Shown here: one piece after another, positions 1,263 to 40,969 of the stretch
How the letters are laid out: each line of letters opens with the position of its first letter
Numbering within the stretch: position 1 is the stretch's first letter
Assembly: GCA_001820305.1 (NCBI GenBank)
Contig: MHPC01000002.1
Location: forward strand, 1 to 40,969
Length of the DNA: 40,969 bases
Direction: 5' to 3'
Origin: Candidatus Staskawiczbacteria bacterium RIFCSPLOWO2_01_FULL_43_17b
GTDB taxonomy: Bacteria > Patescibacteriota > Minisyncoccia > Minisyncoccales > Staskawiczbacteraceae
Translations under genes and position numbers: made by a program
Notes under the pieces: generated by a model
Seen by the model: the letters and a program-made list of their open reading frames with translations, nothing else
Databases searched by the model: none
Told to the model about the DNA's origin: nothing

Positions 1263-2447
1263 ATGTTCAGCGCAAAAGAAAAAATCCAAAGATTATTGGA
1301 TAAAGCGGGTGTCACCATTAACGGCCCCCATGATTTTGACATCCAGGTGCATAACGAAAAACTCTATGGGCGGGTGTTGCTAGGCGGATCGCTGGCGCTG
1401 GGCGAATCTTACATAGACGGCTGGTGGGATGCCAAAAACCTTGACCAGTTCTTCCATAATATTTTATCGGCCGGGCTTTCCGAGGAATTCAAATTAACCT
1501 GGCCTACGTTACTTACGTTTTTAAAAACCTATCTTTTTAATCTGGAAACCCCTTCGCGCTCTTTTGAAGTGGGTCAAAAACACTATGACATTGGCAATGA
1601 TGTGTATGAAGCCATGCTGGACAAGCGCTTGGTGTACACCTGCGGTTACTGGGCCCCTTCGACAGATTCGACAGGCTCACTGCAAGCAAGCTCAGGGCAG
1701 GCAGAGAGAAATTTAGATGAAGCCCAAGAAGCAAAACTGGATTTGGTGTGCCGGAAAATCGGCCTGAAAAAAAGTGACAGGGTTTTGGACATTGGCTGTG
1801 GTTGGGGGAGTTTTTTGAAATTCGCCTCAGAAACATATGGCGCCAAGGGCACCGGAGTGACCGTTTCAAAAAACCAAGTGGCACTGGCCAAAGAAGTTTG
1901 CCAGGGCCTGCCCATAGAAATTTTGCTGCAAGACTACCGTGATGTAAAAGGCAGCTTTGACCACATTGTTTCCCTTGGTATGTTTGAGCACGTTGGGGTG
2001 AAAAATTACCGCACCTACATGCAAAAAGCCCATGACTTGTTAAAAGATGGCGGGTTGTTTTTGTTGCACACCATTGGCGTAAGCCAACCCCTGGAATTTG
2101 TGGACCCGTGGGTTGAAAAATATATTTTTCCCAACAGTATTTTGCCCGCCCCGGTAGAGGTGTCAAAAGCTATGGAAGGGCTTTTTACCATTGAAGACTG
2201 GCACAATTTCGGCGCAGATTACGATAAAACTTTGATGGCTTGGTTTGAGAATTTTGATGCTGCCTGGCCGCAACTTAGCGCTAAATATTCTGACCCTTCA
2301 ATTCCACTCAGGGCAAGCAAATTTTATCGCATGTGGAAATATTATCTGCTCAGTTTTGCCGGCTCTTTCCGCGCCCGCAATCTTCAGCTTTGGCAGATTG
2401 TGTTGAGTAAAAGGGGAGTGCCCGGCGGGTATAAATCGGTACGCTGA
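1263..2447 (+). CDS. cfa: cyclopropane-fatty-acyl-phospholipid synthase family SAM-dependent methyltransferase (carries in-frame insertion)
   Basis: 394 aa; HYDIGNDVYEAMLDKRLVYTCGYW and VLDIGCGWGSF motifs typical of the CFA synthase family; starts 6 nt after tRNA-Thr. Confidence 0.85.
   Translation: MFSAKEKIQRLLDKAGVTINGPHDFDIQVHNEKLYGRVLLGGSLALGESYIDGWWDAKNLDQFFHNILSAGLSEEFKLTWPTLLTFLKTYLFNLETPSRSFEVGQKHYDIGNDVYEAMLDKRLVYTCGYWAPSTDSTGSLQASSGQAERNLDEAQEAKLDLVCRKIGLKKSDRVLDIGCGWGSFLKFASETYGAKGTGVTVSKNQVALAKEVCQGLPIEILLQDYRDVKGSFDHIVSLGMFEHVGVKNYRTYMQKAHDLLKDGGLFLLHTIGVSQPLEFVDPWVEKYIFPNSILPAPVEVSKAMEGLFTIEDWHNFGADYDKTLMAWFENFDAAWPQLSAKYSDPSIPLRASKFYRMWKYYLLSFAGSFRARNLQLWQIVLSKRGVPGGYKSVR
1655..1705 (+). 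repeat. in-frame insertion element (expanded copy): CCTTCGACAGATTCGACAGGCTCACTGCAAGCAAGCTCAGGGCAGGC, translated PSTDSTGSLQASSGQA
   Basis: same core CCTTCGACAGGCTCAGGGCA(G/A)G found in frame in two other genes (24725, 29291); interrupts conserved Cfa segment ...CGYW|...|ERNLDEAQEAKL. Confidence 0.6.
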
Positions 2448-4552: not shown

Positions 4553-5225
4553 ATTTGAAAAGGTTACCAAAATTTACTTGCCCGAATCCGCCGTTTTGCA
4601 AGATGTTTCTTTTGAAGTAAAAAAGGGCGAGTTTGTTTCCATTGTGGGAAAATCGGGGGCGGGCAAATCCACCTTGATTAAAATGATTTTGGGGTTGGAA
4701 GAGCCCACCTACGGCGATGTCTTTTTTAACGGGGAAAACATTCATAAAGTCAGCCACAATGAATTGCAGAATATCCGGCGTAAAATCGGCGCGGTTTATC
4801 AGGATTACAAGTTGCTGCCCGCCAAAACCGTGTATGAGAACGTAGCCTATATCATGGAAATTGAAGGCAGGGTAAACGAAGATATTGCTTTGCAGGTTCC
4901 CAGGGTACTGGCGGCCATCGGGCTGAAAGAGAAAATGGATAACTTTCCCGAAGAACTTTCCGGCGGCGAACAGCAGCGCCTGGCCATTGCCCGGGCGTTA
5001 GCGGGGCAGCCGGAGGTGATTATTGCGGATGAGCCGACCGGGAATTTGGATCCGTATAATTCCCATGAAGTGCTGGCGCTGTTGGAAAAAATAAACCGGT
5101 CGGGGAAAACCGTTATCTTGGCCACGCACGATAGGGAAATTGTCAACAAATTAGCGCGAAGGGTGATTACCATAGAAGACGGGAGGGTGGTGAGGGACGA
5201 AGAAAAAGGAAGATTCATTATTTAG
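4545..5225 (+). CDS. ftsE: cell division ATP-binding protein FtsE (ABC ATPase)
   Basis: Walker A GKSGAGKST, signature LSGGEQQR, Walker B IIADEPTGNLD; overlaps prfB stop by 8 nt; followed by ftsX. Confidence 0.9.
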   Translation: MIRFEKVTKIYLPESAVLQDVSFEVKKGEFVSIVGKSGAGKSTLIKMILGLEEPTYGDVFFNGENIHKVSHNELQNIRRKIGAVYQDYKLLPAKTVYENVAYIMEIEGRVNEDIALQVPRVLAAIGLKEKMDNFPEELSGGEQQRLAIARALAGQPEVIIADEPTGNLDPYNSHEVLALLEKINRSGKTVILATHDREIVNKLARRVITIEDGRVVRDEEKGRFII

Positions 5226-5313
5226 GGTCTAGGGGATAGGGTCTAGGGTCTAGTAAAAACGTAACACGGCGTTACGGCTAAACCCTAACCCCTAGACCCT
5301 AAGCCCTCAAAAA
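5226..5313. repeat. intra-operon palindromic repeat (GGGTCTAGGG.../...CCCTAGACCCTAA arms, CCCTAA-type)
   Basis: imperfect inverted repeat arms of about 25 bp around central CGTAAC-ACGGC-GTTACG hairpin; fills ftsE-ftsX spacer exactly. Confidence 0.7.
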
Positions 5314-5314
5314 A

Positions 5315-6226
5315 ATGGCACATTTTTCAAGGGTATTGGGTTTCGCTTTTGCGCATTTTTACCGTAACAAAGGCACTTCCGTGGCCGCGATTTTTATTTT
5401 AACCATCACCACCCTGCTTATCACCGGGCTGTTTTTTGTGCGCGGCGCCAGTAATTACGTTATCGCTCAGGTGCAAAACAAAATTGACATTACCGCCTAT
5501 TTTAAAGCGGACGCGGCCGAAGATGATATTTTGCAGGTGCGCCAGGAATTGCTGCAAGATGGCGAAGTTGTCAGGGCGGTTGAATATGTTTCCCAAGACC
5601 AGGCTTTGGCCGATTTTAACGCAAAGCACCAAGATGATCCCACCTTTGAACGCGCACTTCAGGAAGTGGGGCAGAATCCCTTTTTGCCTTCACTGAATAT
5701 TATTACCAATGGGGCGGCGGCTGAATATGAGAATGTTGCCAATGTGCTGACCCAGGATAAATATGCCGTGCTAATAGAAGAGGTTGATTTTTCTGAAAAA
5801 AGGGATACTATTGAAAAGGTCTTTGCCATCACGGGTAGCATCACGCGGTTTGGGCTGGTGGCCGGGGTATTGCTTTTGCTGATTGCCATTTTAGTGGTTT
5901 TTAACACCATCAAACTGATTGTGGAAACTTCCGGGCAGGAAATCAGCACCATGCGTATTGTGGGGGCTTCAAACTGGTTTATTCGCGCGCCATTTGTTAT
6001 TCAAGGGGTTATTTTTGGGGCCATTTCGTTTGCCATTTGTTTTGTGGCAACCGCTTTGATAGCTTATCTTTTAGCTTCGGGGATTTCTGTTATCATGCCT
6101 GGATTTAATTTGTTCACATTTTTCCTTTCTAATATTTTGATTATCATGGTCATTCAACTGGCCGCCGGCGCGGGCCTGGCAAGTTTGTTAAGTTTTATGG
6201 TGGTGAGGAAGTATTTAAAAGTATAA
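5315..6226 (+). CDS. ftsX: cell division permease FtsX
   Basis: 303 aa, N-terminal TM, large periplasmic loop, three C-terminal TM helices; downstream of ftsE. Confidence 0.85.
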   Translation: MAHFSRVLGFAFAHFYRNKGTSVAAIFILTITTLLITGLFFVRGASNYVIAQVQNKIDITAYFKADAAEDDILQVRQELLQDGEVVRAVEYVSQDQALADFNAKHQDDPTFERALQEVGQNPFLPSLNIITNGAAAEYENVANVLTQDKYAVLIEEVDFSEKRDTIEKVFAITGSITRFGLVAGVLLLLIAILVVFNTIKLIVETSGQEISTMRIVGASNWFIRAPFVIQGVIFGAISFAICFVATALIAYLLASGISVIMPGFNLFTFFLSNILIIMVIQLAAGAGLASLLSFMVVRKYLKV

Positions 6227-6328
6227 ACCCTAAATACTAAATCCTAAACTCTAAATAAATTCAAAATCACAAAATTTAAAATCTAAAACACGTTTAGGAT
6301 TTAGAGTTTAGTGTTTATGGTTTAACAT
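6227..6328. repeat. intra-operon palindromic repeat (CTAAA-type; shares exact 25-mer TTTAGGATTTAGAGTTTAGTGTTTA with 37656-37760)
   Basis: arms AAACCCTAAATACTAAATCCTAAACTCTAAATAAA / TTTAGGATTTAGAGTTTAGTGTTTATGGTTT; fills gap between ftsX stop and tRNA-Gln. Confidence 0.7.
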
Positions 6329-6399
6329 TGCGGGATCGTCTAATGGTAGGACAACAGATTCTGGATCTGTTTATCTAGGTTCGAATCCTAGTCCCGCAG
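6329..6399 (+). tRNA. tRNA-Gln (anticodon CTG), no encoded CCA
   Basis: U1:A72 pair and G73 discriminator typical of bacterial tRNA-Gln; anticodon stem ACAGA/TCTGT loop TTCTGGA; T-arm CTAGG-TTCGAAT-CCTAG. Confidence 0.8.
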
Positions 6400-14205: not shown

Positions 14206-14541
14206 ATGAATAAAATAATAATAATAATAATACTATCATTGATTGGTTTGGCGCTTATTGTTGGGGCCGGTTTTTATTTTTACGCCAGCGTGTTTCCAAA
14301 ATCCCAGGTGGAAAATGTAAATGGGGGGCTTAACACCCAAATGCCCCAAGAAAACGATTCTGACGCCCCGACCGTCGAGGTAGAGGCAGAGGTTAGGACT
14401 GAGCCTGCCAGCGGCGGCGGGTTAACGATTTGCGCGGATCAATGCGGGGATGGCATTTGCCAGGACAGGGACGCGTATTGTAATAGTTTGAATTGTATTT
14501 GCATAGAAAACTCCAAAGAATGCCCACAAGATTGTAAATAA
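14206..14541 (+). CDS. small secreted/membrane-anchored Cys-rich protein (hypothetical)
   Basis: N-terminal hydrophobic IIIIIILSLIGLALIVGAGFYFY; C-terminal CADQCGDGICQ...CNSLNCICIENSKECPQDC; no obvious SD; starts 8 nt after tRNA 3' repeat. Confidence 0.5.
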   Translation: MNKIIIIIILSLIGLALIVGAGFYFYASVFPKSQVENVNGGLNTQMPQENDSDAPTVEVEAEVRTEPASGGGLTICADQCGDGICQDRDAYCNSLNCICIENSKECPQDCK

Positions 14542-14554
14542 TGGTTTAAAGTTT

Positions 14555-14593
14555 GCCGCCTTTTGCAACCATTGCAAAAGGCGGCGTTTTGTT
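14555..14593 (+). terminator. rho-independent terminator (GCCGCCTTTTGCAA-ccat-TTGCAAAAGGCGGC + GTTTTGTT)
   Basis: perfect 14-bp palindrome followed by T-rich run. Confidence 0.7.
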
Positions 14594-14603
14594 ATACAAT
14601 GAG

Positions 14604-14881
14604 CCTAGGGCGCCAGTTCATATTATAACTTATGGTAGCGAGTAAATTCGGGCAAGATTCAAGGCGCAACGAGGAAACGTATCCTCTGCGATACGTTGAC
14701 GAAGTTGCAACGATGAAGCTTGCCCGAATTCACTCGCCCAAAGGGAAACCAAAAAATGGCTGATTTCTTCGTTTTTCCTCGTCGGCGATACACTGCGGTA
14801 TCGCCTCCTCGGAAGAAACCTTGAAATCATCTCATTTTTTGGCTTCTACCATAAGTCCTAATATGAACTGGCACCCTAGAG
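14604..14881 (+). ncRNA. about 280-nt structured element B (second family member): closing inverted repeat CCTAGGGCGCCAGTTCATATTA...TAATATGAACTGGCACCCTAGAG, inner helix GAATTCGGGCAAG/CTTGCCCGAATTC, conserved ATTCAAGGCGC / GCAACGATGAAG / TGAAAT.AT.TCATTTTTTG
   Basis: alignment with element A shows conserved loops and covarying helices; intergenic between Cys-rich ORF and MBL-fold gene. Confidence 0.55.
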
Positions 14882-14922
14882 CGCGAAAGTTAAATTTTGG
14901 CGCTTATCCTAATCTCAATCCC

Positions 14923-15669
14923 ATGGCCAAAGTGAAAGTCTTGGTGCAAGGGTACACGAATGCGGATTCAAAAGAAGTAATAGGACATGAAAAAACTTGT
15001 CCTACTATTACATTAGTGGTGGACAAGGGTATTGTCATGGTGGTGGATCCGGGGGCCTTGGATAATCAAAAAATCCTGGTTGACGCCCTGGCGCGCGAAG
15101 GCTATTTGGTTGACGATGTGAATATAGTTTGCATTACCCATTCCCACGCGCACCATTACATGAATGTGGGGATGTTTCAAAAAGCCAAAGTGTTGGAGTA
15201 TTTTGGCCTTTGGACCGGAGGAATGGTTCAAGACTGGCAGGAAAATTTCAGTGATGATATCCAGATTTTAAAAACCCCGGGGCATGATTATAGCGGGATT
15301 TCGCTTTTTGTAAAAACCCATGAAGGGGTGGTGGCCATTTGTGGAGATGTGTTTTGGAATGAAGACGGCCCCGAGTTTGATATGTATGCCTCTGACCAGA
15401 AGGTATTAAAGCACAGCCGCCAGCTGGTCACACAGATGTCTCATTGGATTATTCCCGGACACGGGGGCATGTATAAAACGAAGCAGTTGTCTTCAATCCC
15501 ACCAAGCGGGGCGGCCAAATCGGAAGCGTCAGTAGCGGGAAGCTGCAAAAAGTGCCACCGGCTGTTTAAAAAAATAACCGATAAATGCATTTGCCAGGAT
15601 TGGTTATGTTATCACTGCTGCGAATGCGAAGCCGACTGCAAGGTGTGCAATTGCAAGGTAAGAAGGTAG
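14923..15669 (+). CDS. metallo-beta-lactamase fold hydrolase with Cys-rich C-terminal tail
   Basis: HxHxDH motif ITHSHAHHY; C-terminal CKKCHRLFKKITDKCICQDWLCYHCCECEADCKVCNCKV; start moved to ATG 14923 because upstream part of the 14821 ORF lies inside element B. Confidence 0.65.
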   Translation: MAKVKVLVQGYTNADSKEVIGHEKTCPTITLVVDKGIVMVVDPGALDNQKILVDALAREGYLVDDVNIVCITHSHAHHYMNVGMFQKAKVLEYFGLWTGGMVQDWQENFSDDIQILKTPGHDYSGISLFVKTHEGVVAICGDVFWNEDGPEFDMYASDQKVLKHSRQLVTQMSHWIIPGHGGMYKTKQLSSIPPSGAAKSEASVAGSCKKCHRLFKKITDKCICQDWLCYHCCECEADCKVCNCKVRR

Positions 15670-15760
15670 TTTATTGGGGTCTAGCGTCTAGGGTATAGGG
15701 TATAGTAAAACGGCGTACGTCGTGACTAGCCCCTAGCCCCTATCCCCTAAACCCTCAAGA
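15670..15760. repeat. intra-operon palindromic repeat (GGGGTCTAGCGTCTAGGGTATAGGG.../...CCCCTAGCCCCTATCCCCTAAACCC)
   Basis: same architecture as 5226-5313 (TAGGG unit arms, central CGTACG hairpin); fills spacer between MBL gene stop and DUF167 ATG. Confidence 0.65.
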
Positions 15761-15982
15761 ATGAAGATCATTATCAAAGCCAAGCCGGGTTCAAGAGAAG
15801 ACAAGATAGAAAAAGTAGATGAAGCTAATTACATTGTTTATGTGACGGCTCCGCCCATTGACGGCAAGGCCAACGCGGCTATTATTAAGTTACTGGCGGC
15901 GCATTTTGACGTGAGCCAATCGTTGATAGAAATCATTTCCGGCCACATGGCGCGGGTGAAAGTAGTAGAAATAAATAACTAA
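15761..15982 (+). CDS. DUF167/YggU (UPF0235) family protein
   Basis: 73 aa; IIIKAKPGSREDKIE...YIVYVTAPPIDGKANAAIIKLLAAHF pattern typical of YggU. Confidence 0.65.
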   Translation: MKIIIKAKPGSREDKIEKVDEANYIVYVTAPPIDGKANAAIIKLLAAHFDVSQSLIEIISGHMARVKVVEINN

Positions 15983-24082: not shown

Positions 24083-24772
24083 ATGGCAAAACTATTTTTA
24101 TTGAGGCATTTGAAATCACAGTGGAACAAGGATGATCGCTTTGCGGGGTGGGTGGATAACCCTCTTTCGGATGAAGGTCGGGCGCAAGCGGCGGGAATTG
24201 CCGACCAGTTGCGAGGCCAGCAAATTGACGTGGCGTATTGCAATGCTTTAATTCGTTGCACGGAAACCGTTTTGCGTGTGTATGAAAAAATAGATGGAAA
24301 ATATCCGTTGTTTTTGCATATTGATGGCGGGAACATGCAAGAATGGGGAAACTATACTGGCAATGGAATGGGCGAGGTGCCGTTTTACGTGAGCGAAAAA
24401 TTAAATGAGCGCTATTATGGTAGTGTGCAAGGGTTGAACAAAGCCCAGTGTAAAAAAGAATACGGTGAGGATGTAGTGCAGCAGTGGCGCAGGGCTTACA
24501 AAGTGGCGCCGCCGGAAGGGGAGTCAGGTGAAGACACGTTTAATCGTGTGTTGCCATTTTACCAACAATACATTGAAAAAGATTTAAAGGCCGGGAAAAA
24601 TGTGTTGGTGGTGGCCAGCCATAACAGTTTGCGGGCCATTGCCAAACATATTGAAAACATTTCTGATGATGACGTGGCGAATTTAGAACTCCCATTTGGG
24701 GCGCTGGTGGAATACGAATTTGACCCTTCGACAGGCTCAGGGCAGGCGGGAAAATTTACTAAGTTGCAATAA
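24083..24772 (+). CDS. gpmA: histidine phosphatase / 2,3-bisphosphoglycerate-dependent phosphoglycerate mutase-like (carries in-frame insertion near C-terminus)
   Basis: LLRHLKSQWNKDDRFAGWVDNPLSDEG (RHG-type catalytic motif variant); ...EYEFDPSTGSGQAGKF C-terminus. Confidence 0.65.
   Translation: MAKLFLLRHLKSQWNKDDRFAGWVDNPLSDEGRAQAAGIADQLRGQQIDVAYCNALIRCTETVLRVYEKIDGKYPLFLHIDGGNMQEWGNYTGNGMGEVPFYVSEKLNERYYGSVQGLNKAQCKKEYGEDVVQQWRRAYKVAPPEGESGEDTFNRVLPFYQQYIEKDLKAGKNVLVVASHNSLRAIAKHIENISDDDVANLELPFGALVEYEFDPSTGSGQAGKFTKLQ
24725..24748 (+). repeat. in-frame insertion element CCTTCGACAGGCTCAGGGCAGGCG (PSTGSGQA)
   Basis: identical core to 29291-29312 and 1655-1705. Confidence 0.6.
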
Positions 24773-26733: not shown

Positions 26734-26811
26734 TTATCCCGATCAATTTAGCAAAGCTAAATTGATACGGGATCCCGTATCAAAATTTATACTAAATTTT
26801 TATCGGGATAG
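26734..26811. mobile_element. MITE-like hairpin element copy 2 (TTATCCCGAT-caATTTAGCAAAGCTAAAT-TGATACGGGATCCCGTATCA-...-ATCGGGATAG), no cargo
   Basis: same palindromes and terminal inverted repeats as 13728-13877. Confidence 0.55.
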
Positions 26812-27277: not shown

Positions 27278-29710
27278 ATGAAAAATGTTTTGTGGTTTAA
27301 AGAGCTAGGCATTAAAGATGTGCCGCAGGTGGGCGGGAAAAATGCCTCGCTTGGTGAAATGTATAATAATTTGCTAAGTAAGGGAGTTAATTTGGCAAAC
27401 GGTTTTGCCACCACCTCCCAGGCTTATTTTATTTTTCTGGAAAAAAGCGGCTTGTCTTTGCAAATCCAGAACATTTTAAAAGATATTAATGTGCATGACC
27501 TGGCCGCACTGCAAGAAAAAGGCAAGAAAGTGCGCCAGCTTATTTTGAGTGTTAATTTGCAGCCCGCCCTTCAAGAAGAAATCATCGCGGCTTACCGCCA
27601 GCTGTCGGATATGTACGGGTCAAAAAATACCGATGTGGCAGTAAGGTCTTCGGCCACTGCCGAAGACCTGCCCGGAGCCAGTTTTGCCGGCCAACAGGAA
27701 ACGTTTTTAAATGTTACCGGGGAACAAAATGTATTGGAGGCGGTGAAAAAATGCTTTGCATCTTTGTTCACTGACCGGGCCATTGCTTACCGCCAGGAAA
27801 TGGGGTTTGGGCATACCAAAGTGGGCTTATCGGCTGGCATCCAAAAAATGGTGCGCTCCGACGTGGGCGCCAGCGGCGTGATGTTTTCCTGTGACACGGA
27901 AAGCGGTTTTGGCGACGTGGTGCTCATTAACGCCAGCTATGGTTTGGGTGAAAATGTGGTGTTGGGAAGAGTGGAGCCGGACCAATATTACGTGTTTGAG
28001 CCTACCCTAAAAACGGGGCACAAACCCATTATCCAAAAAAAAATCGGGTCAAAGCTTTTGACCATGGTTTACACCAAAGACCCAAAAAACCCGATTAAAA
28101 ACACCAAAACCTTGCCAAAAAACCAGCAATCATTTGTGTTGGCAGATGAAGAAATTTTGCAGCTGGCTAAGTGGTCAATGCTGGTGGAAGCCCACTACCA
28201 AAAACCCATGGACATGGAATGGGCCAAAGACGGTATTGACGGCAAATTGTATATTGTCCAAGCTAGGCCCGAAACCGTACAAAGCAAACGGAACGTGAAT
28301 GTGCTAGAAGATTACGTTTTGCAAACACCCAAAACCCAACACCTAACACCCATTGCTAGGGGCATGAGTGTCGGGGGAAAAATCGGATCCGGCAAGGCCC
28401 ATAAAATTTTAAGCCCGAAGGATATTAATAATTTCAAAAAAGGGGAAGTGCTGGTAACCGGCATGACAGACCCGGACTGGGTGCCGGCCATGAAACTGGC
28501 CAGCGCGATTATTACCGACCAGGGCGGTCGCACGGCTCACGCGGCCATTGTTTCCCGTGAATTGGGAATTCCCTGCATTGTGGGCGCGGGCAATGCCACT
28601 AAAACCGTAAAAACCGGCCAGGAAATTACCGTGGATTGTTCCGGCGGAGAAGAGGGCTTTGCTTACGAAGGCATTATTCCGTTTGAAATAAAAAAAGTAG
28701 ATATTTCAAAATTAAAAAAGCCCAAAACTAAAATCGCCATGAACTTGGCAGACCCTTCCCAAGCCTTTAATTTAAGCTTTATTCCCAATGACGGCGTGGG
28801 CCTAGCGCGGGAAGAATTTATTATTGCCAACACCATCAAAATTCACCCCAACGCCCTGATAGATTACAAAAAATTAAAGCCGGCGCTGCGTAAAAAAATT
28901 GACGCGCTGACGCTGGGGTATGAAAATAAGATTGATTTTTACGTTGATAAATTGGCCGAAGGGGTGGGGAAAATTGGCGCGGCATTTTACCCAAAACAGG
29001 TGATAGTGCGATTTTCTGATTTTAAAACCAACGAATACCGTCAGTTGGTAGGCGGCGAGCTTTACGAAATGCATGAAGAAAATCCCATGATGGGTTTTCG
29101 CGGAGCTTCCCGGTATTATCACGAAAGTTTCAAGCAGGCCTTTATGTTGGAATGCCAGGCCATTAAAAAAGTGCGGGAGGAATTTGGCATTGATAACGTG
29201 CAAGTGATGATTCCCATGTGCCGGACTATTGAAGAGGGCCAGAAGGTGCTGGAAGTCATGAAGGAAGCCGGTTTGGTGAAAGGTGAGAACCCTTCGACAG
29301 GCTCAGGGCAAGTGGCCTTGAAAGTATATGTCATGTGCGAACTTCCGGCTAACGTGGTTTTAGCAGAACAGTTTTTGGAAATGTTTGACGGCTTTTCCAT
29401 TGGGTCTAATGATTTAACCCAGTTTACCCTGGGCCTGGACCGCGATAATTCGGAAATGTCCGGCGTTGCCAACGAAAAAAATGATGCGGTGAAAGAATTA
29501 ATTAAAGAGGCGGTGCGGGTTTGTAAAAAAATGGGGAAATATTCGGGCATTTGCGGAGACGCGCCTTCCACATTCCTTGAATTTACCAAATTTTTGGTAG
29601 ACCAGGGCATTGAATCAATTTCTTTGTCATCAGACGCCATTATTAAAACTACGATGGCGGTACTTGAGTATGAAAAGGAAAAATCCGCAAATACAATTAA
29701 TAGGACGTAG
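27278..29710 (+). CDS. ppsA: phosphoenolpyruvate synthase (pyruvate, water dikinase) carrying in-frame insertion
   Basis: N-terminal FKELGIKDVPQVGGKNASLGEM, phosphohistidine domain GGRTAHAAIVSRELGIPCIVG, C-terminal PEP-utilising domain; 810 aa. Confidence 0.9.
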   Translation: MKNVLWFKELGIKDVPQVGGKNASLGEMYNNLLSKGVNLANGFATTSQAYFIFLEKSGLSLQIQNILKDINVHDLAALQEKGKKVRQLILSVNLQPALQEEIIAAYRQLSDMYGSKNTDVAVRSSATAEDLPGASFAGQQETFLNVTGEQNVLEAVKKCFASLFTDRAIAYRQEMGFGHTKVGLSAGIQKMVRSDVGASGVMFSCDTESGFGDVVLINASYGLGENVVLGRVEPDQYYVFEPTLKTGHKPIIQKKIGSKLLTMVYTKDPKNPIKNTKTLPKNQQSFVLADEEILQLAKWSMLVEAHYQKPMDMEWAKDGIDGKLYIVQARPETVQSKRNVNVLEDYVLQTPKTQHLTPIARGMSVGGKIGSGKAHKILSPKDINNFKKGEVLVTGMTDPDWVPAMKLASAIITDQGGRTAHAAIVSRELGIPCIVGAGNATKTVKTGQEITVDCSGGEEGFAYEGIIPFEIKKVDISKLKKPKTKIAMNLADPSQAFNLSFIPNDGVGLAREEFIIANTIKIHPNALIDYKKLKPALRKKIDALTLGYENKIDFYVDKLAEGVGKIGAAFYPKQVIVRFSDFKTNEYRQLVGGELYEMHEENPMMGFRGASRYYHESFKQAFMLECQAIKKVREEFGIDNVQVMIPMCRTIEEGQKVLEVMKEAGLVKGENPSTGSGQVALKVYVMCELPANVVLAEQFLEMFDGFSIGSNDLTQFTLGLDRDNSEMSGVANEKNDAVKELIKEAVRVCKKMGKYSGICGDAPSTFLEFTKFLVDQGIESISLSSDAIIKTTMAVLEYEKEKSANTINRT
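29291..29312 (+). repeat. in-frame insertion element CCTTCGACAGGCTCAGGGCAAG (PSTGSGQV)
   Basis: splits conserved ...GLVKGEN|...|ALKVYVMCELPANV block of PpsA. Confidence 0.6.
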
Positions 29711-35767: not shown

Positions 35768-35811
35768 AAAAAAATGAGCCGTTTCGCTTTTGCGAAACGG
35801 CTCATTTTTTT
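35768..35811. terminator. bidirectional terminator (A7-TGAGCCGTTTCGC-tttt-GCGAAACGGCTCA-T7) between convergent genes
   Basis: perfect 13-bp stem flanked by A-run and T-run. Confidence 0.8.
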
Positions 35812-35812
35812 A

Positions 35813-36607
35813 CTAGACCCTAGACCCTTCTTTTTTCTGCTCTTCCTCGAATTTCTTAAAGGCTTTGAAAATGGGCTCCATTTTGCCCTCTACAATATCT
35901 TCCAAATTATGCCAGGATTTTTCTATCCTATGATCGGTAATTCTATTTTGCGGGTAATTATAGGTTCGGGTTTTTTCAGAACGCTTGGCCCAGCCAATTT
36001 GCTCCCGGCGCGCTTGGGTTAATTTTGATGAATCGGCTTCTTGCTGGGCTTTCAAAAGGCGCGCGCCCAAAAGCCCCATGGCATTTTCTTTATTTTGCAG
36101 CTGGCTTCGTTCTGTTTGACTGGTCACCACAAGACCGCTGGGGATATGGGTGATTCTAATGGCAGATTCAGTTTTATTTACGTGTTGGCCGCCAGCGCCT
36201 GAAGAGCGGTAAGTGTCTATTTTAAGATCAGAAGGATTTATGGTAATGTCCATTTTGGTGGGTTTTTCTAAAACGGCAATGGTTACCGTTGAAGTGTGTA
36301 CACGCCCTTGTTTTTCGGTGGCTGGAATACGCTGAACCCGGTGCACCCCGCTTTCATATTGCATGGCTTCAAATGCGCCCGAGCCGGAAAGTTCAAACAC
36401 GATTTCTTTATAACCCCCCACATCTGAAGTGTTGGAATCGATGACTTTATTGCCCCACCCTTGGCTAGTGGCATATTTTGAATACATCCGGTATAAATCA
36501 CGCACAAAAAGCCCAGCTTCGTCTCCACCGGTCCCCGCGCGAATTTCAATAATCACGGATTGCTTTCCGCCCCCACCCGTTTGTTGTTGATATTCTTGAT
36601 AATCCAT
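35813..36607 (-). CDS. prfA: peptide chain release factor 1 lacking the N-terminal domain 1 (264 aa)
   Basis: PAT tripeptide (RIPATEKQGRVHTS), GGQ (SGAGGQHVNKTES), begins at EIRAGTGGDEAGLF (domain 2); in-frame TGA 5 codons upstream of ATG and only about 75 nt to next gene. Confidence 0.8.
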   Translation of the reverse strand: MDYQEYQQQTGGGGKQSVIIEIRAGTGGDEAGLFVRDLYRMYSKYATSQGWGNKVIDSNTSDVGGYKEIVFELSGSGAFEAMQYESGVHRVQRIPATEKQGRVHTSTVTIAVLEKPTKMDITINPSDLKIDTYRSSGAGGQHVNKTESAIRITHIPSGLVVTSQTERSQLQNKENAMGLLGARLLKAQQEADSSKLTQARREQIGWAKRSEKTRTYNYPQNRITDHRIEKSWHNLEDIVEGKMEPIFKAFKKFEEEQKKEGSRV

Positions 36608-36954: not shown

Positions 36955-37655
36955 TGACATCCGAATCTACTAATAACGTAAAACTTAACGCGGATGATAT
37001 GGCCAAAGCCGGCCTGAATTTTGGTCATACCGTTTCCAAGCTTCATCCTAAAATGAAGGCTTTTGTACAGGGCGTTAAAAGCAATGTCCACATGATTGAT
37101 ATGGAAAAGTCCGCCAAAGAATTTGATTTGGCTTTGAAATTTATTTCCCAATTAGTTGCCGAAGGAAAAACATTGCTGTTTGTGGGAACAAAAATACAGG
37201 CAAAAAATTTAACCAAAGTAGCGGCGGTGGAAAGCGGTATGCCATATGTTACCGAACGGTGGCTGGGTGGAGCCTTTACTAATTTTGAAACCATTTCAAA
37301 ACGGGTGGCTCACTTGAAAGACTTGGAAAGCAAAAAAGCCAAAGGTGAATTTGAGAAATATACCAAATATGAACAGATGATGCTTAATGAAGAAATCGCT
37401 TCGCTGACCACGAAATTTGAAGGCATCAAAAATATGGCAAAGTTGCCGGAAGCCGTTTTAATTTTAGATTTAAAAAAAGACATTGCCGTAGCGCGTGAAG
37501 CAAAACGCAAGGGTATTAAAATTGTGGGCATTGTAGACACCAATATTGACCCGGCTCTGGCCGATTACGCCATTTATGCCAATGATGACGCCGTTTCTTC
37601 TATTGGATACGTGCTGGAAAAAATCAAAGAAACTATATTAAGTGCGAAACCCTAA
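36954..37655 (+). CDS. rpsB: 30S ribosomal protein S2
   Basis: AGLNFGHTVSKLHPKMKAFV..., LLFVGTK, conserved S2 blocks. Confidence 0.9.
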   Translation: MTSESTNNVKLNADDMAKAGLNFGHTVSKLHPKMKAFVQGVKSNVHMIDMEKSAKEFDLALKFISQLVAEGKTLLFVGTKIQAKNLTKVAAVESGMPYVTERWLGGAFTNFETISKRVAHLKDLESKKAKGEFEKYTKYEQMMLNEEIASLTTKFEGIKNMAKLPEAVLILDLKKDIAVAREAKRKGIKIVGIVDTNIDPALADYAIYANDDAVSSIGYVLEKIKETILSAKP

Positions 37656-37760
37656 ATCCGAAACCCTAAACTCTAAATAAATAAAAAATTCAAAATAAAA
37701 AACGTTTTGAGTTTAAATATTTGAGTTTATTTAGGATTTAGAGTTTAGTGTTTAGAATTT
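37656..37760. repeat. intra-operon palindromic repeat (CTAAA-type; exact 25-mer shared with 6227-6328)
   Basis: CCCTAAATCCGAAACCCTAAACTCTAAATAAAT...TTTAGGATTTAGAGTTTAGTGTTTA fills rpsB-tsf spacer. Confidence 0.7.
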
Positions 37761-38210
37761 ATGATTAATATCGAAGATATTAAGAGATTGAGAGATGAAA
37801 CCGGTGCCTCGCCGGTGAAAATTAAAAAGGCCATGGAAGAGTCTGGGGAAGATGTTCAAAAAGCCAAGGAATTGTTGAAAAGCTGGGGAGCGGTAAAAGC
37901 CGGTGAAAAAGGAGGGCGCGAAACCCATGACGGTGTGATTGATTTTTATATCCATCCTAATGCCAAGTCCGGCGTACTACTGGATATCCGTTGTGAAACT
38001 GATTTTGTGGCAAAAAACCCCGATTTTAAAAGCCTGGCTCACGAAATTTGCCTGCACATTGCCGCCATGCAGCCTGAAAATGTTGAAGCCTTGCTGGCGC
38101 AATCCTGGGTAAAAGACGATGCCAAAACCATTAAAAGTTTGATTGAAGAAACAGTAGCTAAAATAGGGGAGAATATTACTGTGAAACAGTTTGCACGCTT
38201 TGCGATATAA
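37761..38210 (+). CDS. tsf: elongation factor Ts (short form)
   Basis: UBA-like N-terminus IKRLRDETGASPVKIKKAMEESGEDVQKAKELLK followed by dimerisation core. Confidence 0.85.
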   Translation: MINIEDIKRLRDETGASPVKIKKAMEESGEDVQKAKELLKSWGAVKAGEKGGRETHDGVIDFYIHPNAKSGVLLDIRCETDFVAKNPDFKSLAHEICLHIAAMQPENVEALLAQSWVKDDAKTIKSLIEETVAKIGENITVKQFARFAI

Positions 38211-38818: not shown

Positions 38819-39276
38819 GCCATCTTGAAATGAGGGAGGTAAGTAGCAAGTGAAAACCAAGCACTCATTTTTGTACATTAAGCCAGGGGGTGGATTGCGT
38901 GTCGTTGGCACGAGCGGCGGCACCTTTTTCGGTTGCGCCTAGGGTCAGGGTAACGGGAAAAGAACCAGTAATAATCGTGACTGGACAGTTCACCTCTTGT
39001 AATTTTCAGGGAAAAAGGAATGGGCTGGCCAGCCTATTGGCGCTCCGGGTTCAGTTTCGTTAACTGACGACGAGGTCTTCCACGCGGCCCATTTCCTCTT
39101 TTTTCAATGTGTCCAAAAATGAGTGCTCGGTAAAGTAACTTGTTTAAAATTAGTTTTTGAAAGTTGTTTCGAATAAGCTTAATACGTGCTTAACGTATAT
39201 ATTATTTGAGAGTTTGATCCTAGCTCAGGGTGAACGCTGGAAATGTGGATACCGGCATGCAAGTCAAGGGGCCCAG

Positions 39277-39543
39277 GGATGTAGACTCTGAACGCGAATC
39301 TAAATTGAGAAGCGAAAAAATGTGATAATTTCAATGTTTCTTGCGACGAAATGTAGTGACTACTACATTGAGGAGTAAAAACGAAGAAATTAGCCATTTT
39401 TTCGCTTCCCTTCGGGCTTTCATATTTTGATTATCTTCTGCGTCTTCGGAGCTTAACGATGCCTACAGCATCGCTTCGCTCCTCAGTTCTTGAATATAAT
39501 CAAAATATGGAAGCTCAATTGATTCTGTTCAGAGTCTACATCC
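39277..39543 (+). other. about 267-nt intervening sequence in 16S helix 6 closed by perfect 17-bp stem GGATGTAGACTCTGAAC/GTTCAGAGTCTACATCC
   Basis: E. coli has about 35 nt here; AT-rich interior with several CGCTTC-containing hairpins; no ORF. Confidence 0.6.
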
Positions 39544-39933
39544 TTAAGGCACCGGCGAACGGCTTAGTAACACGTGGATACATACCGCAAAGTGGAGCAC
39601 AGCTCGTCGAAAGACGGGGTAATTCTCCATAATCCCGCAAGGGTAAACACGCAAGTGGCTTTGTGAATGGTCCGCGGTCTATCAGCTAGTTGGTGAGGTA
39701 ATGGCTCACCAAGGCTATGACGGATAGGGGGCGTGAGAGCGCGACCCCCAAGAATGGCACTGCGACACGGGCCATACTCCTACGGGAGGCTGCAGTCGAG
39801 AATCTTCCACAATGGACGAAAGTCTGATGGAGCGACATTTCGTGATGGATGAAGCCCTTCGGGGTGTAAACATCTTTTATGCGGGAAAAAATTATTGATT
39901 GTACCGCATGAATAAGGGGGTACTAATTCTGTG

Positions 39934-40815
39934 ACCCGCAAGGGTGGTGCAGAATATTCGCAGTAATGCGGATAAAGCAAACTTGGCTCATATGCTGGAA
40001 CACCTTGTGTGTCCGCTAACTCCTTTCATTTTTGAAAGGCGCGCACAAGACAATCAGCAGGGAAGCTGATATATGTTATAATAAACATATATTTAGCCCC
40101 TCAGAGACTGAATCCGAAAGGATGAAATGGTGGCATATAACCCACCATTATACGCCGAGCTCCTGGTTTTTAATCAGGATGATGGGATAGTCCAGTGGCA
40201 CATTATCGTATATGGAAACAAAGGCGCGAGCAATATTAATTGGATTAATTCTTGGAGATGGATATTTAACAAAGCCGTTTGGTAGCAGTACCAAATCTAT
40301 GCTGGATATTAAATATCATGAGAAATCTTTAGAGTATCTTCAATGGATGCATAAAGAGTTACAAGAATTACAACTTTCTGAAATCAAAAAGAAAAAAGGG
40401 GCTTCCCAATATCGGTTTTATACTAAAACCAGAGATGATATTGGCCGGCTTCATGAGATATTTTATCCTGGCGGAGTCAAACATATTCCAAAAGGTATTA
40501 CTAAATATCTTAAAGATCCGTTAACTTTGGCCGTGTGGTATCAAGATGACGGAAAGCTAGATTTCAGGAGCAAATATCATTCCAATTCATTATTTGCGAC
40601 ATATTGTTTTCCCTACGATGAATGTGAATTATTAGCTAATGCATTGCGTGTAAATTTTGACTTAGATGTGCGAGTCTGCAAATGTCAAATGCGTGGAAAA
40701 ATGTATTATTCTTTATATGTGACCTCAAAAAGCATGGATTTATTCATGCAGATTATTGAGCCACATATACAGAAATGCTTTTACTATAAATTAGTAAAGT
40801 ATCGCAAATAACTAG
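39934..40815 (+). mobile_element. intron/intervening sequence in 16S (within GTG|CCAGCAG, E. coli about 515) encoding a LAGLIDADG homing endonuclease
   Basis: conserved 16S sequence resumes at GCCAGCAGTAGCGGTAATAC (40815); exact boundaries ambiguous by 1 nt because of G at both junctions. Confidence 0.7.
40212..40811 (+). CDS. LAGLIDADG homing endonuclease (double-motif)
   Basis: LIGLILGDGYL and LAVWYQDDGKL motifs; 199 aa; stop 4 nt before 3' exon. Confidence 0.85.
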   Translation: METKARAILIGLILGDGYLTKPFGSSTKSMLDIKYHEKSLEYLQWMHKELQELQLSEIKKKKGASQYRFYTKTRDDIGRLHEIFYPGGVKHIPKGITKYLKDPLTLAVWYQDDGKLDFRSKYHSNSLFATYCFPYDECELLANALRVNFDLDVRVCKCQMRGKMYYSLYVTSKSMDLFMQIIEPHIQKCFYYKLVKYRK

Positions 40816-40969
40816 CCAGCAGTAGCGGTAATACAGAACCCCCGAGCGTTACCCGGATTTATTGGGCGTAAAGGGTTGGTAGGTGGCGTAGTAAGTTCAA
40901 GATTAAACCTCATCGGCTTAACCTTTGAGCTGTTTTGAATACTGCTACACTAAGAGGGCGTTAGAGGCA

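Follow-up and report, generated by a model that had tools for sequence, protein, structure and literature searches.

The contig MHPC01000002.1 (assembly GCA_001820305.1) of Candidatus Staskawiczbacteria, a genome of the Parcubacteria in the candidate phyla radiation (CPR) from groundwater of the Rifle aquifer, provides the 40,969-nt stretch of DNA analysed here, which we call the window. Three of its genes carry copies of one short repeat, all in the frame that encodes the peptide PSTGSGQ. The gene at 1263–2447 (plus strand) encodes a cyclopropane fatty acyl phospholipid synthase of 394 residues (Cfa) and has a 48-nt insert in the loop after CGYW. The gene at 24083–24772 (plus strand) encodes GpmA, a 2,3-bisphosphoglycerate-dependent phosphoglycerate mutase family protein of 229 residues that matches the dPGM family model TIGR01258 with 168.9 bits (cut-off 81.7). 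The gene at 27278–29710 (plus strand) encodes phosphoenolpyruvate synthase (PpsA) with 810 residues, which matches NF005057 with 1135 bits. The copies in gpmA and ppsA are single units of 24 nt.

In-frame copies and their empty sites

The gpmA copy occupies 24725–24748 (plus strand; CCTTCGACAGGCTCAGGGCAGGCG) and encodes PSTGSGQA, and the ppsA copy occupies 29291–29314 (plus strand; CCTTCGACAGGCTCAGGGCAAGTG) and encodes PSTGSGQV. An earlier note on this DNA had described these two as the second and third copies of one element. Exact matches to CCTTCGACAGGCTCAGGGCA are indeed present at 24725 and at 29291, and nowhere else in the window. The 20-mer shared by the two copies has two exact matches in the window and no further match at up to three mismatches; the chance expectation is 0, and none of 100 dinucleotide-preserving shuffles of the window matched it. 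The similarity of the two copies reaches 27 nt at 93% identity (24723–24749 versus 29289–29315). Both copies are in frame within conserved protein blocks, as described, with translations that read EYEFD-PSTGSGQA-GKFTKLQ, ending at the stop codon, and GLVKGEN-PSTGSGQVA-LKVYVMCE. The triplicated CAGG that the note gives for the element fits the copy at 24725; the one at 29291 has CAAG as its third unit. The first copy, which the numbering of the note implied, is the 48-nt composite in the Cfa gene at 1656–1703 (plus strand; CCTTCGACAGATTCGACAGGCTCACTGCAAGCAAGCTCAGGGCAGGCA), also in the PSTGSGQ frame. It encodes PSTDSTGSLQASSGQA, translated in its context as A-PSTDSTGSLQASSGQA-E, and reads as a 24-nt unit into which a second is nested, immediately after TTCGAC.

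The inserts have a G+C content of 62–71%, their flanks 39–46% and the whole window 44%; for the GpmA copy, the values are 71% and 39% in its flanks. Therefore, the GC-rich inserts were not generated from the AT-rich local sequence. At least 23 contigs in ENA and Logan, from independent samples and by independent assemblers, encode the identical GpmA protein, indicating that the insert is not an assembly artefact. The window copies show no hairpin potential, folding no better than shuffles (z = −0.18 to −0.55).

GpmA and PpsA are glycolytic/gluconeogenic enzymes, and the inserts in both are located at the apices of surface turns, between Asp and Gly (GAC/GGA) in GpmA and between Asn and Gly (AAC/GGN) in PpsA. 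In the AlphaFold model of GpmA (mean predicted local distance difference test score, pLDDT, 92), a strand at residues 208–214 is followed by coil at 215–223, corresponding to the insert, and by a strand at 224–227. The pLDDT is about 82–84 around the insert and at least 95 in the core. As modeled, the insert enlarges the turn of the C-terminal β-hairpin. In PpsA, the insert adds eight residues to a helix-strand loop compared with the solved structures 2OLS and 9DAE; in the C-terminal PEP-utilizers domain, this loop links GL(V/K)KGEN to the strand LKVYVMCE. Most likely, the insert does nothing in GpmA and PpsA beyond lengthening a loop, and is neutral there.

Close relatives have the same genes with an empty site (orthologues and loci are given by our P and L numbers). 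Among 120 PpsA orthologues, the closest (P0001–P0003; 86–89% identical) read GLVKGEN(D/G)LKVYVMCE, without an insert. At the DNA level, the empty ppsA site of L127 is GAAAAC/GATTTG, where the window has GAGAAC, the 24 nt, and GCCTTG. GpmA orthologues at 84–88% identity read EYEFDG(N/K)xF, also without an insert. The empty gpmA site of L254 is GAA TTT GAC/GGA AAT, and the filled site of the window is GAA TTT GAC, the 24 nt, and GGA AAA. The filled sites are longer than the empty ones by exactly 24 or 48 nt, hence the inserts did not originate by substitution, and the difference of exactly 24 nt from these close orthologues bears out the earlier proposal of a discrete element inserted in frame. 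No duplicated target is visible at either of the two empty/filled pairs (L127 ppsA and L254 gpmA). It is close to certain that both window sites are insertions of a member of a repeat family.

The same positions are filled in other lineages. Two more GpmA orthologues have a 24-nt variant at the identical position (L252, CCTTCGGCAAGCTCAGGACAAACT; L253, CCTTCGGCGGGCTCAGGGCAGGCT). The three GpmA carriers are 64–72% identical to one another and scattered in the tree, and each has insert-free nearest neighbors at 82–88% identity. In PpsA, another Staskawiczbacteria genome (L129; 78% identical) has a 48-nt composite at the exact site of the window copy, and this composite nearly equals that in the Cfa gene of the window. 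The same loop has related inserts in further PpsA orthologues; one is an inverted pair (CCTGAGCTTGTCGAAGG...CCCTTCGACGCGGCTCAGGG) that folds strongly (L255; z = −7.4). In Cfa, the loop after CGYW contains PST..SGQ inserts of 8, 16, or 24 residues in about a quarter of 120 Patescibacteria orthologues, the baseline without an insert being CGYW-K-D-AKNL. One candidate was rejected: the FDKLR at a second GpmA position in four orthologues is native sequence with unchanged length, not an insert.

Two PpsA orthologues stand apart. P0004 is 96% identical to the window protein and has no insert, but it is partial, and around the site its sequence agrees with that of a more distant lineage; as it may be a chimera or a recombinant, we leave it out of the argument. 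P0027, of the Staskawiczbacteria type, has 1,220 residues, about 400 more, with matches to Pfam PF14528 and PF14890, which we take to be LAGLIDADG and intein-splicing domains. It probably contains an intein.

A family of 24-nt repeats

The copies belong to a family with the 24-nt (8-codon) consensus YCCTTCGACARGCTCAGGRCARGY. The exact 20-mer is found at at least 120 loci in the 596 Gb of GTDB species genomes, compared with about 1–3 expected by chance in a hand estimate. This collection has one genome per species, and most matches are from metagenome-assembled genomes; the taxa are read from the titles of the matches listed, and their proportions are not quantitative. Among these matches are Chloroflexota, Acidobacteriota, Actinomycetota, Myxococcota, Cyanobacteria, Planctomycetota, Verrucomicrobiota, Bacteroidota, Alpha-, Beta-, Gamma-, and Deltaproteobacteria, Gemmatimonadota, Nitrospirales, Margulisiibacteriota, and several Patescibacteria, so that more than 12 bacterial phyla among the matches listed carry the family. 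The 20-mer matches include long-read assemblies, and finished replicons of cultured Sphingobium, Novosphingobium, Sphingomonas, Variovorax, Comamonas, Nitratireductor, and Moraxella osloensis carry the repeat. An 18-nt degenerate core matches at least 120 environmental viral contigs. The cultured-phage database gives only four 18-nt matches, in related Pseudomonas jumbo phages (E = 3), which we take as chance, and 5,426 E. coli genomes (28 Gb) give none. At gathering thresholds, no Rfam 15 family overlaps the copies in the window or at nine loci representing single, tandem, and hairpin forms. No description of the repeat was found in open-access full text. The family is apparently widespread and undescribed.

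The unit has one sharp and one graded end. Over 125 oriented copies, the flanks are without information, and position −1 marks an abrupt rise in information content, from 0.17 to 1.69 bits. Position −1 is C in 94% of copies and a pyrimidine in more than 94%; the C at 24724, immediately 5′ of the GpmA copy, agrees with this conserved pyrimidine. The 3′ end degrades over the last ~3–5 nt. The strongly conserved core is CCCTTCGACARGCTCAGGR (19 nt), and the last five bases vary by genome: the 3′ tails are 62.7% identical within a locus and 49.9% between loci, a difference that none of 500 shuffles matched.

The unit occurs singly, in tandem arrays with a 24-nt period, as the dispersed nested 48-nt composite, and as inverted pairs with strong hairpins. 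The commonest same-strand spacing is exactly 24 nt. Inverted pairs less than 100 nt apart are in the −+ arrangement, which brings the sharp CCC/GGG ends face to face, in 21 cases and in the +− arrangement in 3. The consensus of 24 nt lacks self-complementary ends and thus terminal inverted repeats, and in sphingomonad-type inverted pairs the conserved core forms the stem. The 48-nt composite is found in 58 metagenome stretches with about 45–50 unrelated flanks, mostly in low-GC groundwater and sediment genomes, indicating that the composite is itself a dispersed unit. On a plasmid of Nitratireductor rhodophyticola (L251, 1480–1800), three copies of the variant CCCTTCGACARGCTCAGGATGAGGG, two direct and one inverted, lie between two genes; the direct copies have the core in a hairpin loop and the variable flanking sequence in the stem.

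Most copies are in coding sequence, 81–94% of them lying inside open reading frames (ORFs) of at least 120 codons and 6–19% outside. Of 169 confidently coding 24-nt copies, 80 (47%) are in the PSTGSGQ frame, compared with 20% expected if the five open frames were used equally, an excess of about 9 standard deviations by hand calculation. The other four open frames have 14–31 copies each, and the sixth, which contains TGA, has none. The 48-nt form is in the PSTGSGQ frame in 30 of 49 copies. According to the earlier note, a single frame for all copies would point to selection for a tolerated peptide. Its opposite outcome, copies equally often out of frame or intergenic with no bias, did not appear; the three window copies in one frame and the bias outside the window support selection for a loop peptide that proteins tolerate. 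Outside the window, copies also occur in other frames, in reverse orientation, and between genes, indicating that the frame bias is a survivorship filter after insertion and not a property of the element or of its insertion.

The bases upstream of the unit carry a second preference. The trinucleotide GAC precedes 14–20% of copies, compared with a background of about 1.7%, or about 5.6% among NNC trinucleotides (an enrichment of about 4-fold among NNC). The proportion is alike for non-coding copies and for coding copies in the PSTGSGQ or any other frame, indicating that the preference acts at the level of DNA and not of protein. The sites in GpmA (TTTGAC/GG) and PpsA (GAGAAC/GG) and the nesting point of the composite (TTCGAC/AAG) are in keeping with it. 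Target-site duplications were looked for in 127 24-nt and 22 48-nt copies, and the lengths of the flank repeats equal those of random pairing, with no excess at 3 nt or more. Nor does any linked mobilizing gene recur in an all-versus-all BLASTP comparison of 1,733 ORFs from 240 loci (stretches of up to 14 kb); the largest cross-locus ORF cluster covers 12 of the 240 loci and consists of homologous phage regions.

Other features of the window

The window contains further repeats and an interrupted ribosomal RNA gene. In the 16S rRNA gene (39202–40969), model position 659 is reached only after 1,768 nt, corresponding to about 1.1 kb of extra sequence. A match to the group I intron family RF00028 at 39923–40213 has 34.9 bits, below the gathering score of 50 (E = 9e-7), and the ORF that follows it (40212–40811; 199 residues) may encode a homing endonuclease. 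The 5′ region of 16S rRNA (GCTCAGGRYGAACGC) and the 3′ half of some variants of the 24-nt unit are alike over ~12–14 nt, which is not significant given the many variants and positions compared. The resemblance of the window segment 39222–39238 (AGCTCAGGGTGAACGC), in the same 16S region, to the 3′ half of some repeat variants (AGCTCAGGGTGAGC; L066, L079, and L255) is likewise judged not significant, but may be a lead towards a template origin of the unit. Resemblances of the unit to the tmRNA 5′ motif UUCGACRGG, the RNase P P4 region, tRNA T-loop and D-arm boxes, and the Tn3 38-bp inverted repeat were dropped as unconvincing.

A second, AT-rich repeat family has heptamers similar to TTTAGGG/CCCTAAA at 5214–5307, 6206–6329, 15716–15765, 35807–35828, and 37628–37770; its inverted repeats lie between genes, after their ends, and look like terminators. 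A perfect 33-nt repeat with a 22-nt palindrome (GCTAAATTGATACGGGATCCCGTATCAAAATTT) is present at 13749–13781, immediately upstream of a tRNA gene (13786–13857), and at 26756–26788; it may be a promoter or operator. A duplication of about 300 nt (13899–14207 versus 14605–14880) contains internal inverted repeats and a block of 81 nt with 81% identity. Over 48 nt, it matches 39370–39417, inside the 16S insertion, in inverted orientation at 88%. A search of 13700–15000 against Rfam finds the tRNA only.

Origin and spread of the unit

Each site is one copy of a short interspersed repeat, which on balance is probably multiplied within genomes by copy-and-paste in trans and filtered by selection. 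In this account, an activity acting in trans would recognize the conserved 19-nt core and copy the unit to new positions within a genome, by a single-strand (HUH/Y1-like) or a template-copying route. Selection would then filter the survivors in genes. The unit is divisible by three in length and has a stop codon in only one of its six frames, and the Pro-Ser-Thr-Gly-Ser-Gly-Gln frame, which would form a small, polar, flexible loop, would be strongly favored at the apices of surface turns. The lack of target-site duplications, together with the 5′-flank preference, argues against a DDE transposase and points to one of the two routes named. The closest mechanisms are accordingly those of flank-specific single-strand transposition without target-site duplication, as in IS200/IS605 and REP/RAYT, or template copying.

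An unlikely alternative, though the one among the rivals with most in its favor, is that the unit spreads mainly between related genomes. Uptake, recombination, or gene conversion would act as a drive similar to that of DNA uptake sequences, and insertion alleles would sweep through orthologous sites by recombination in the flanks. In its favor, phylogenetically scattered orthologues of GpmA and PpsA, and many of Cfa, are filled at the same codon boundary, coding copies prefer one frame, and single copies in genes with inverted hairpin pairs outside or inside genes resemble the layout of uptake sequences. However, uptake sequences arise by point substitution and not as clean 24-nt insertions, and orthologous PpsA copies differ in form (24 versus 48 nt). 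Flank recombination could not create the unit and the 48-nt composite in dozens of unrelated flanks. The density here, about one copy per 10–15 kb, also argues against such a drive, known uptake sequences being roughly ten times denser, and we know of no uptake receptor conserved across these phyla.

A polymerase or reverse transcriptase with a fixed internal template could instead extend a 3′ end at a nick or break by one or more units, in the manner of telomerase, with repair sealing the product. We regard this route, taken as the explanation by itself, as rather improbable. It would agree with one sharp and one graded end, with integer multiples of 24 nt and tandem arrays of exactly that period, and with the lack of target duplication. 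The GAC or pyrimidine at the junction could pair with the template, extension of both 3′ ends of a break would be expected to give the one-orientation bias of the inverted pairs, and a conserved template would give conservation across phyla. On the other hand, neither an enzyme nor a template RNA was found, the copies have no linked gene, and Rfam has no match around them. The genome-specific 3′ tails would require a different template in each genome, and the dispersed nested 48-nt composite is easier to understand as a copy of existing copies. In addition, many CPR genomes have no reverse transcriptase.

That the peptide itself is functional, PSTGSGQ having been selected in each protein separately, for instance as a linker or a site of modification, is largely refuted and very improbable. 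The peptide is rich in Ser, Thr, and Gly, all window copies share its frame, and the frame is over-represented elsewhere. But the identity of the copies is at the nucleotide level and includes third codon positions, about half of the coding copies are in other frames or on the opposite strand, a fraction lies outside long ORFs, the closest orthologues function without the insert, and the upstream GAC preference is independent of the frame. Chance similarity, local slippage within a tract of low complexity, or an artefact (assembly, adapter, or chimera), to which the internal CAGG periodicity and the prevalence of metagenome-assembled genomes among the matches might point, is refuted by the shuffles of the window, the independently assembled contigs, the finished replicons of cultured isolates and long-read assemblies, the high GC content of the units in AT-rich flanks, and the location of the copies, always in frame within otherwise intact conserved genes.

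Several points weigh against multiplication by copy-and-paste in trans. Copy-and-paste, although the best-supported inference, is drawn from distribution patterns only, and no mobilizing enzyme, donor copy, or transposition intermediate has been identified. To our knowledge, a non-palindromic unit of 24 nt is shorter than anything that known transposases handle. HUH/Y1 enzymes need hairpins, and the single copies in the window are without such secondary structure. The same codon boundaries could have been filled via recombination between relatives, or by ancestral presence with repeated loss, and not by repeated insertion. Ordinary selfish DNA would hardly be expected to keep a 19-nt core nearly identical from phylum to phylum. 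In GC-rich genomes, frames were assigned by heuristics of ORF length and composition and not by gene prediction.

Known repeats share parts of this pattern. Rickettsia palindromic elements (Ogata et al. 2000, summarized in PMC10969869) are palindromic, about 100–150 bp long, and confined to one genus. They resemble the present family as short non-autonomous elements, located in frame in unrelated housekeeping genes, tolerated at the protein surface, and without a linked transposase; the present unit differs in being 24 nt long, non-palindromic, unstructured as a single copy, and distributed over more than 12 phyla. In-frame insertions absent from orthologues, a mark of the Rickettsia elements, are found in PpsA and GpmA (24 nt) and in Cfa (48 nt). 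The stable-hairpin palindrome of 100–150 bp is not found, the unit being 24 nt long and folding like shuffles.

Similar to REP/REPIN sequences, which are mobilized by RAYT (a Y1 HUH enzyme), and to the PATEs derived from IS200/IS605, the unit is very short, has a 5′-flank preference, and makes no target-site duplication. As in REP/REPIN, inverted doublets form long hairpins, and the gene that mobilizes REP/REPIN acts in trans. REPs are individually palindromic, almost all extragenic, and species-specific, whereas the single units here are hairpin-free and mostly coding, with a core shared across phyla. REP/REPIN have a conserved 5′ tetranucleotide, compared with a 5′ pyrimidine only, and GAC in 14–20% of cases, in the present family. 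No Y1 gene was found in the stretches of up to 14 kb around the copies. The 5′-flank preference is also much weaker than the invariant tetranucleotide of IS608, and the subterminal hairpins recognized by TnpA at both ends of IS200/IS605 elements are absent from single units.

Miniature inverted-repeat transposable elements, or MITEs, such as Correia/NEMIS, Nezha, QMITE, and ERIC/RU, have terminal inverted repeats and target-site duplications and are at least about 50 bp long (PMC10969869, PMC2229807, PMC5896051). The present family is likewise dispersed, non-autonomous, and sometimes intragenic with in-frame fusions. In contrast to MITEs, it has neither terminal inverted repeats nor target-site duplications, and the sharp end of its inverted pairs faces inward and not outward; in contrast to both REPs and MITEs, it is not excluded from genes. 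With DNA uptake sequences (DUS of Neisseria and USS of Pasteurellaceae) it shares a short conserved motif in coding regions, a frame bias, and inverted pairs that form hairpins after genes, but those sequences arise by substitution and are specific to one bacterial family, whereas the unit is found as discrete 24-nt insertions relative to orthologues. PARCELs are likewise DNA that encodes repeats, are likewise punctate in their distribution over distant microbes, and are presumed, as the unit is, to move within genomes and between them. They encode 25-residue amphipathic domains in tandem tracts of proteins of unknown function, in contrast to the single 8-codon inserts in conserved enzymes described here.

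If the family is mobile, its signature would enable annotators and alignment builders to spot non-homologous insertions, and the presence or absence of copies could be a phylogenetic marker. Mobility is testable, since cultured, genetically tractable carriers exist (Sphingobium, Novosphingobium, Comamonas, and Variovorax). Tentatively, and with more doubt than belief, we consider a wider possibility: the 24-nt unit may be the smallest mobile DNA known, written into the DNA of more than 12 phyla and their viruses by a widespread activity in trans, through either single-strand transposition or template copying, with a length and codon content that evolved so that insertion into genes is nearly harmless, and may be a general source of 8-residue loop insertions. 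If the family is mobile, the lower size limit of mobile DNA would be pushed far below that of MITEs and REPs, and the question would be which enzyme recognizes a 19-nt core conserved from CPR bacteria to Acidobacteria, Actinobacteria, and sphingomonads. Mobility would also explain many spurious hypothetical proteins with PFD(K/R)LRA, LRQAQG, ALSLSKG, or PE(P/L)VEG, as well as the loop insertions of 8, 16, and 24 residues rich in Ser, Thr, Gly, and Gln in conserved enzymes.

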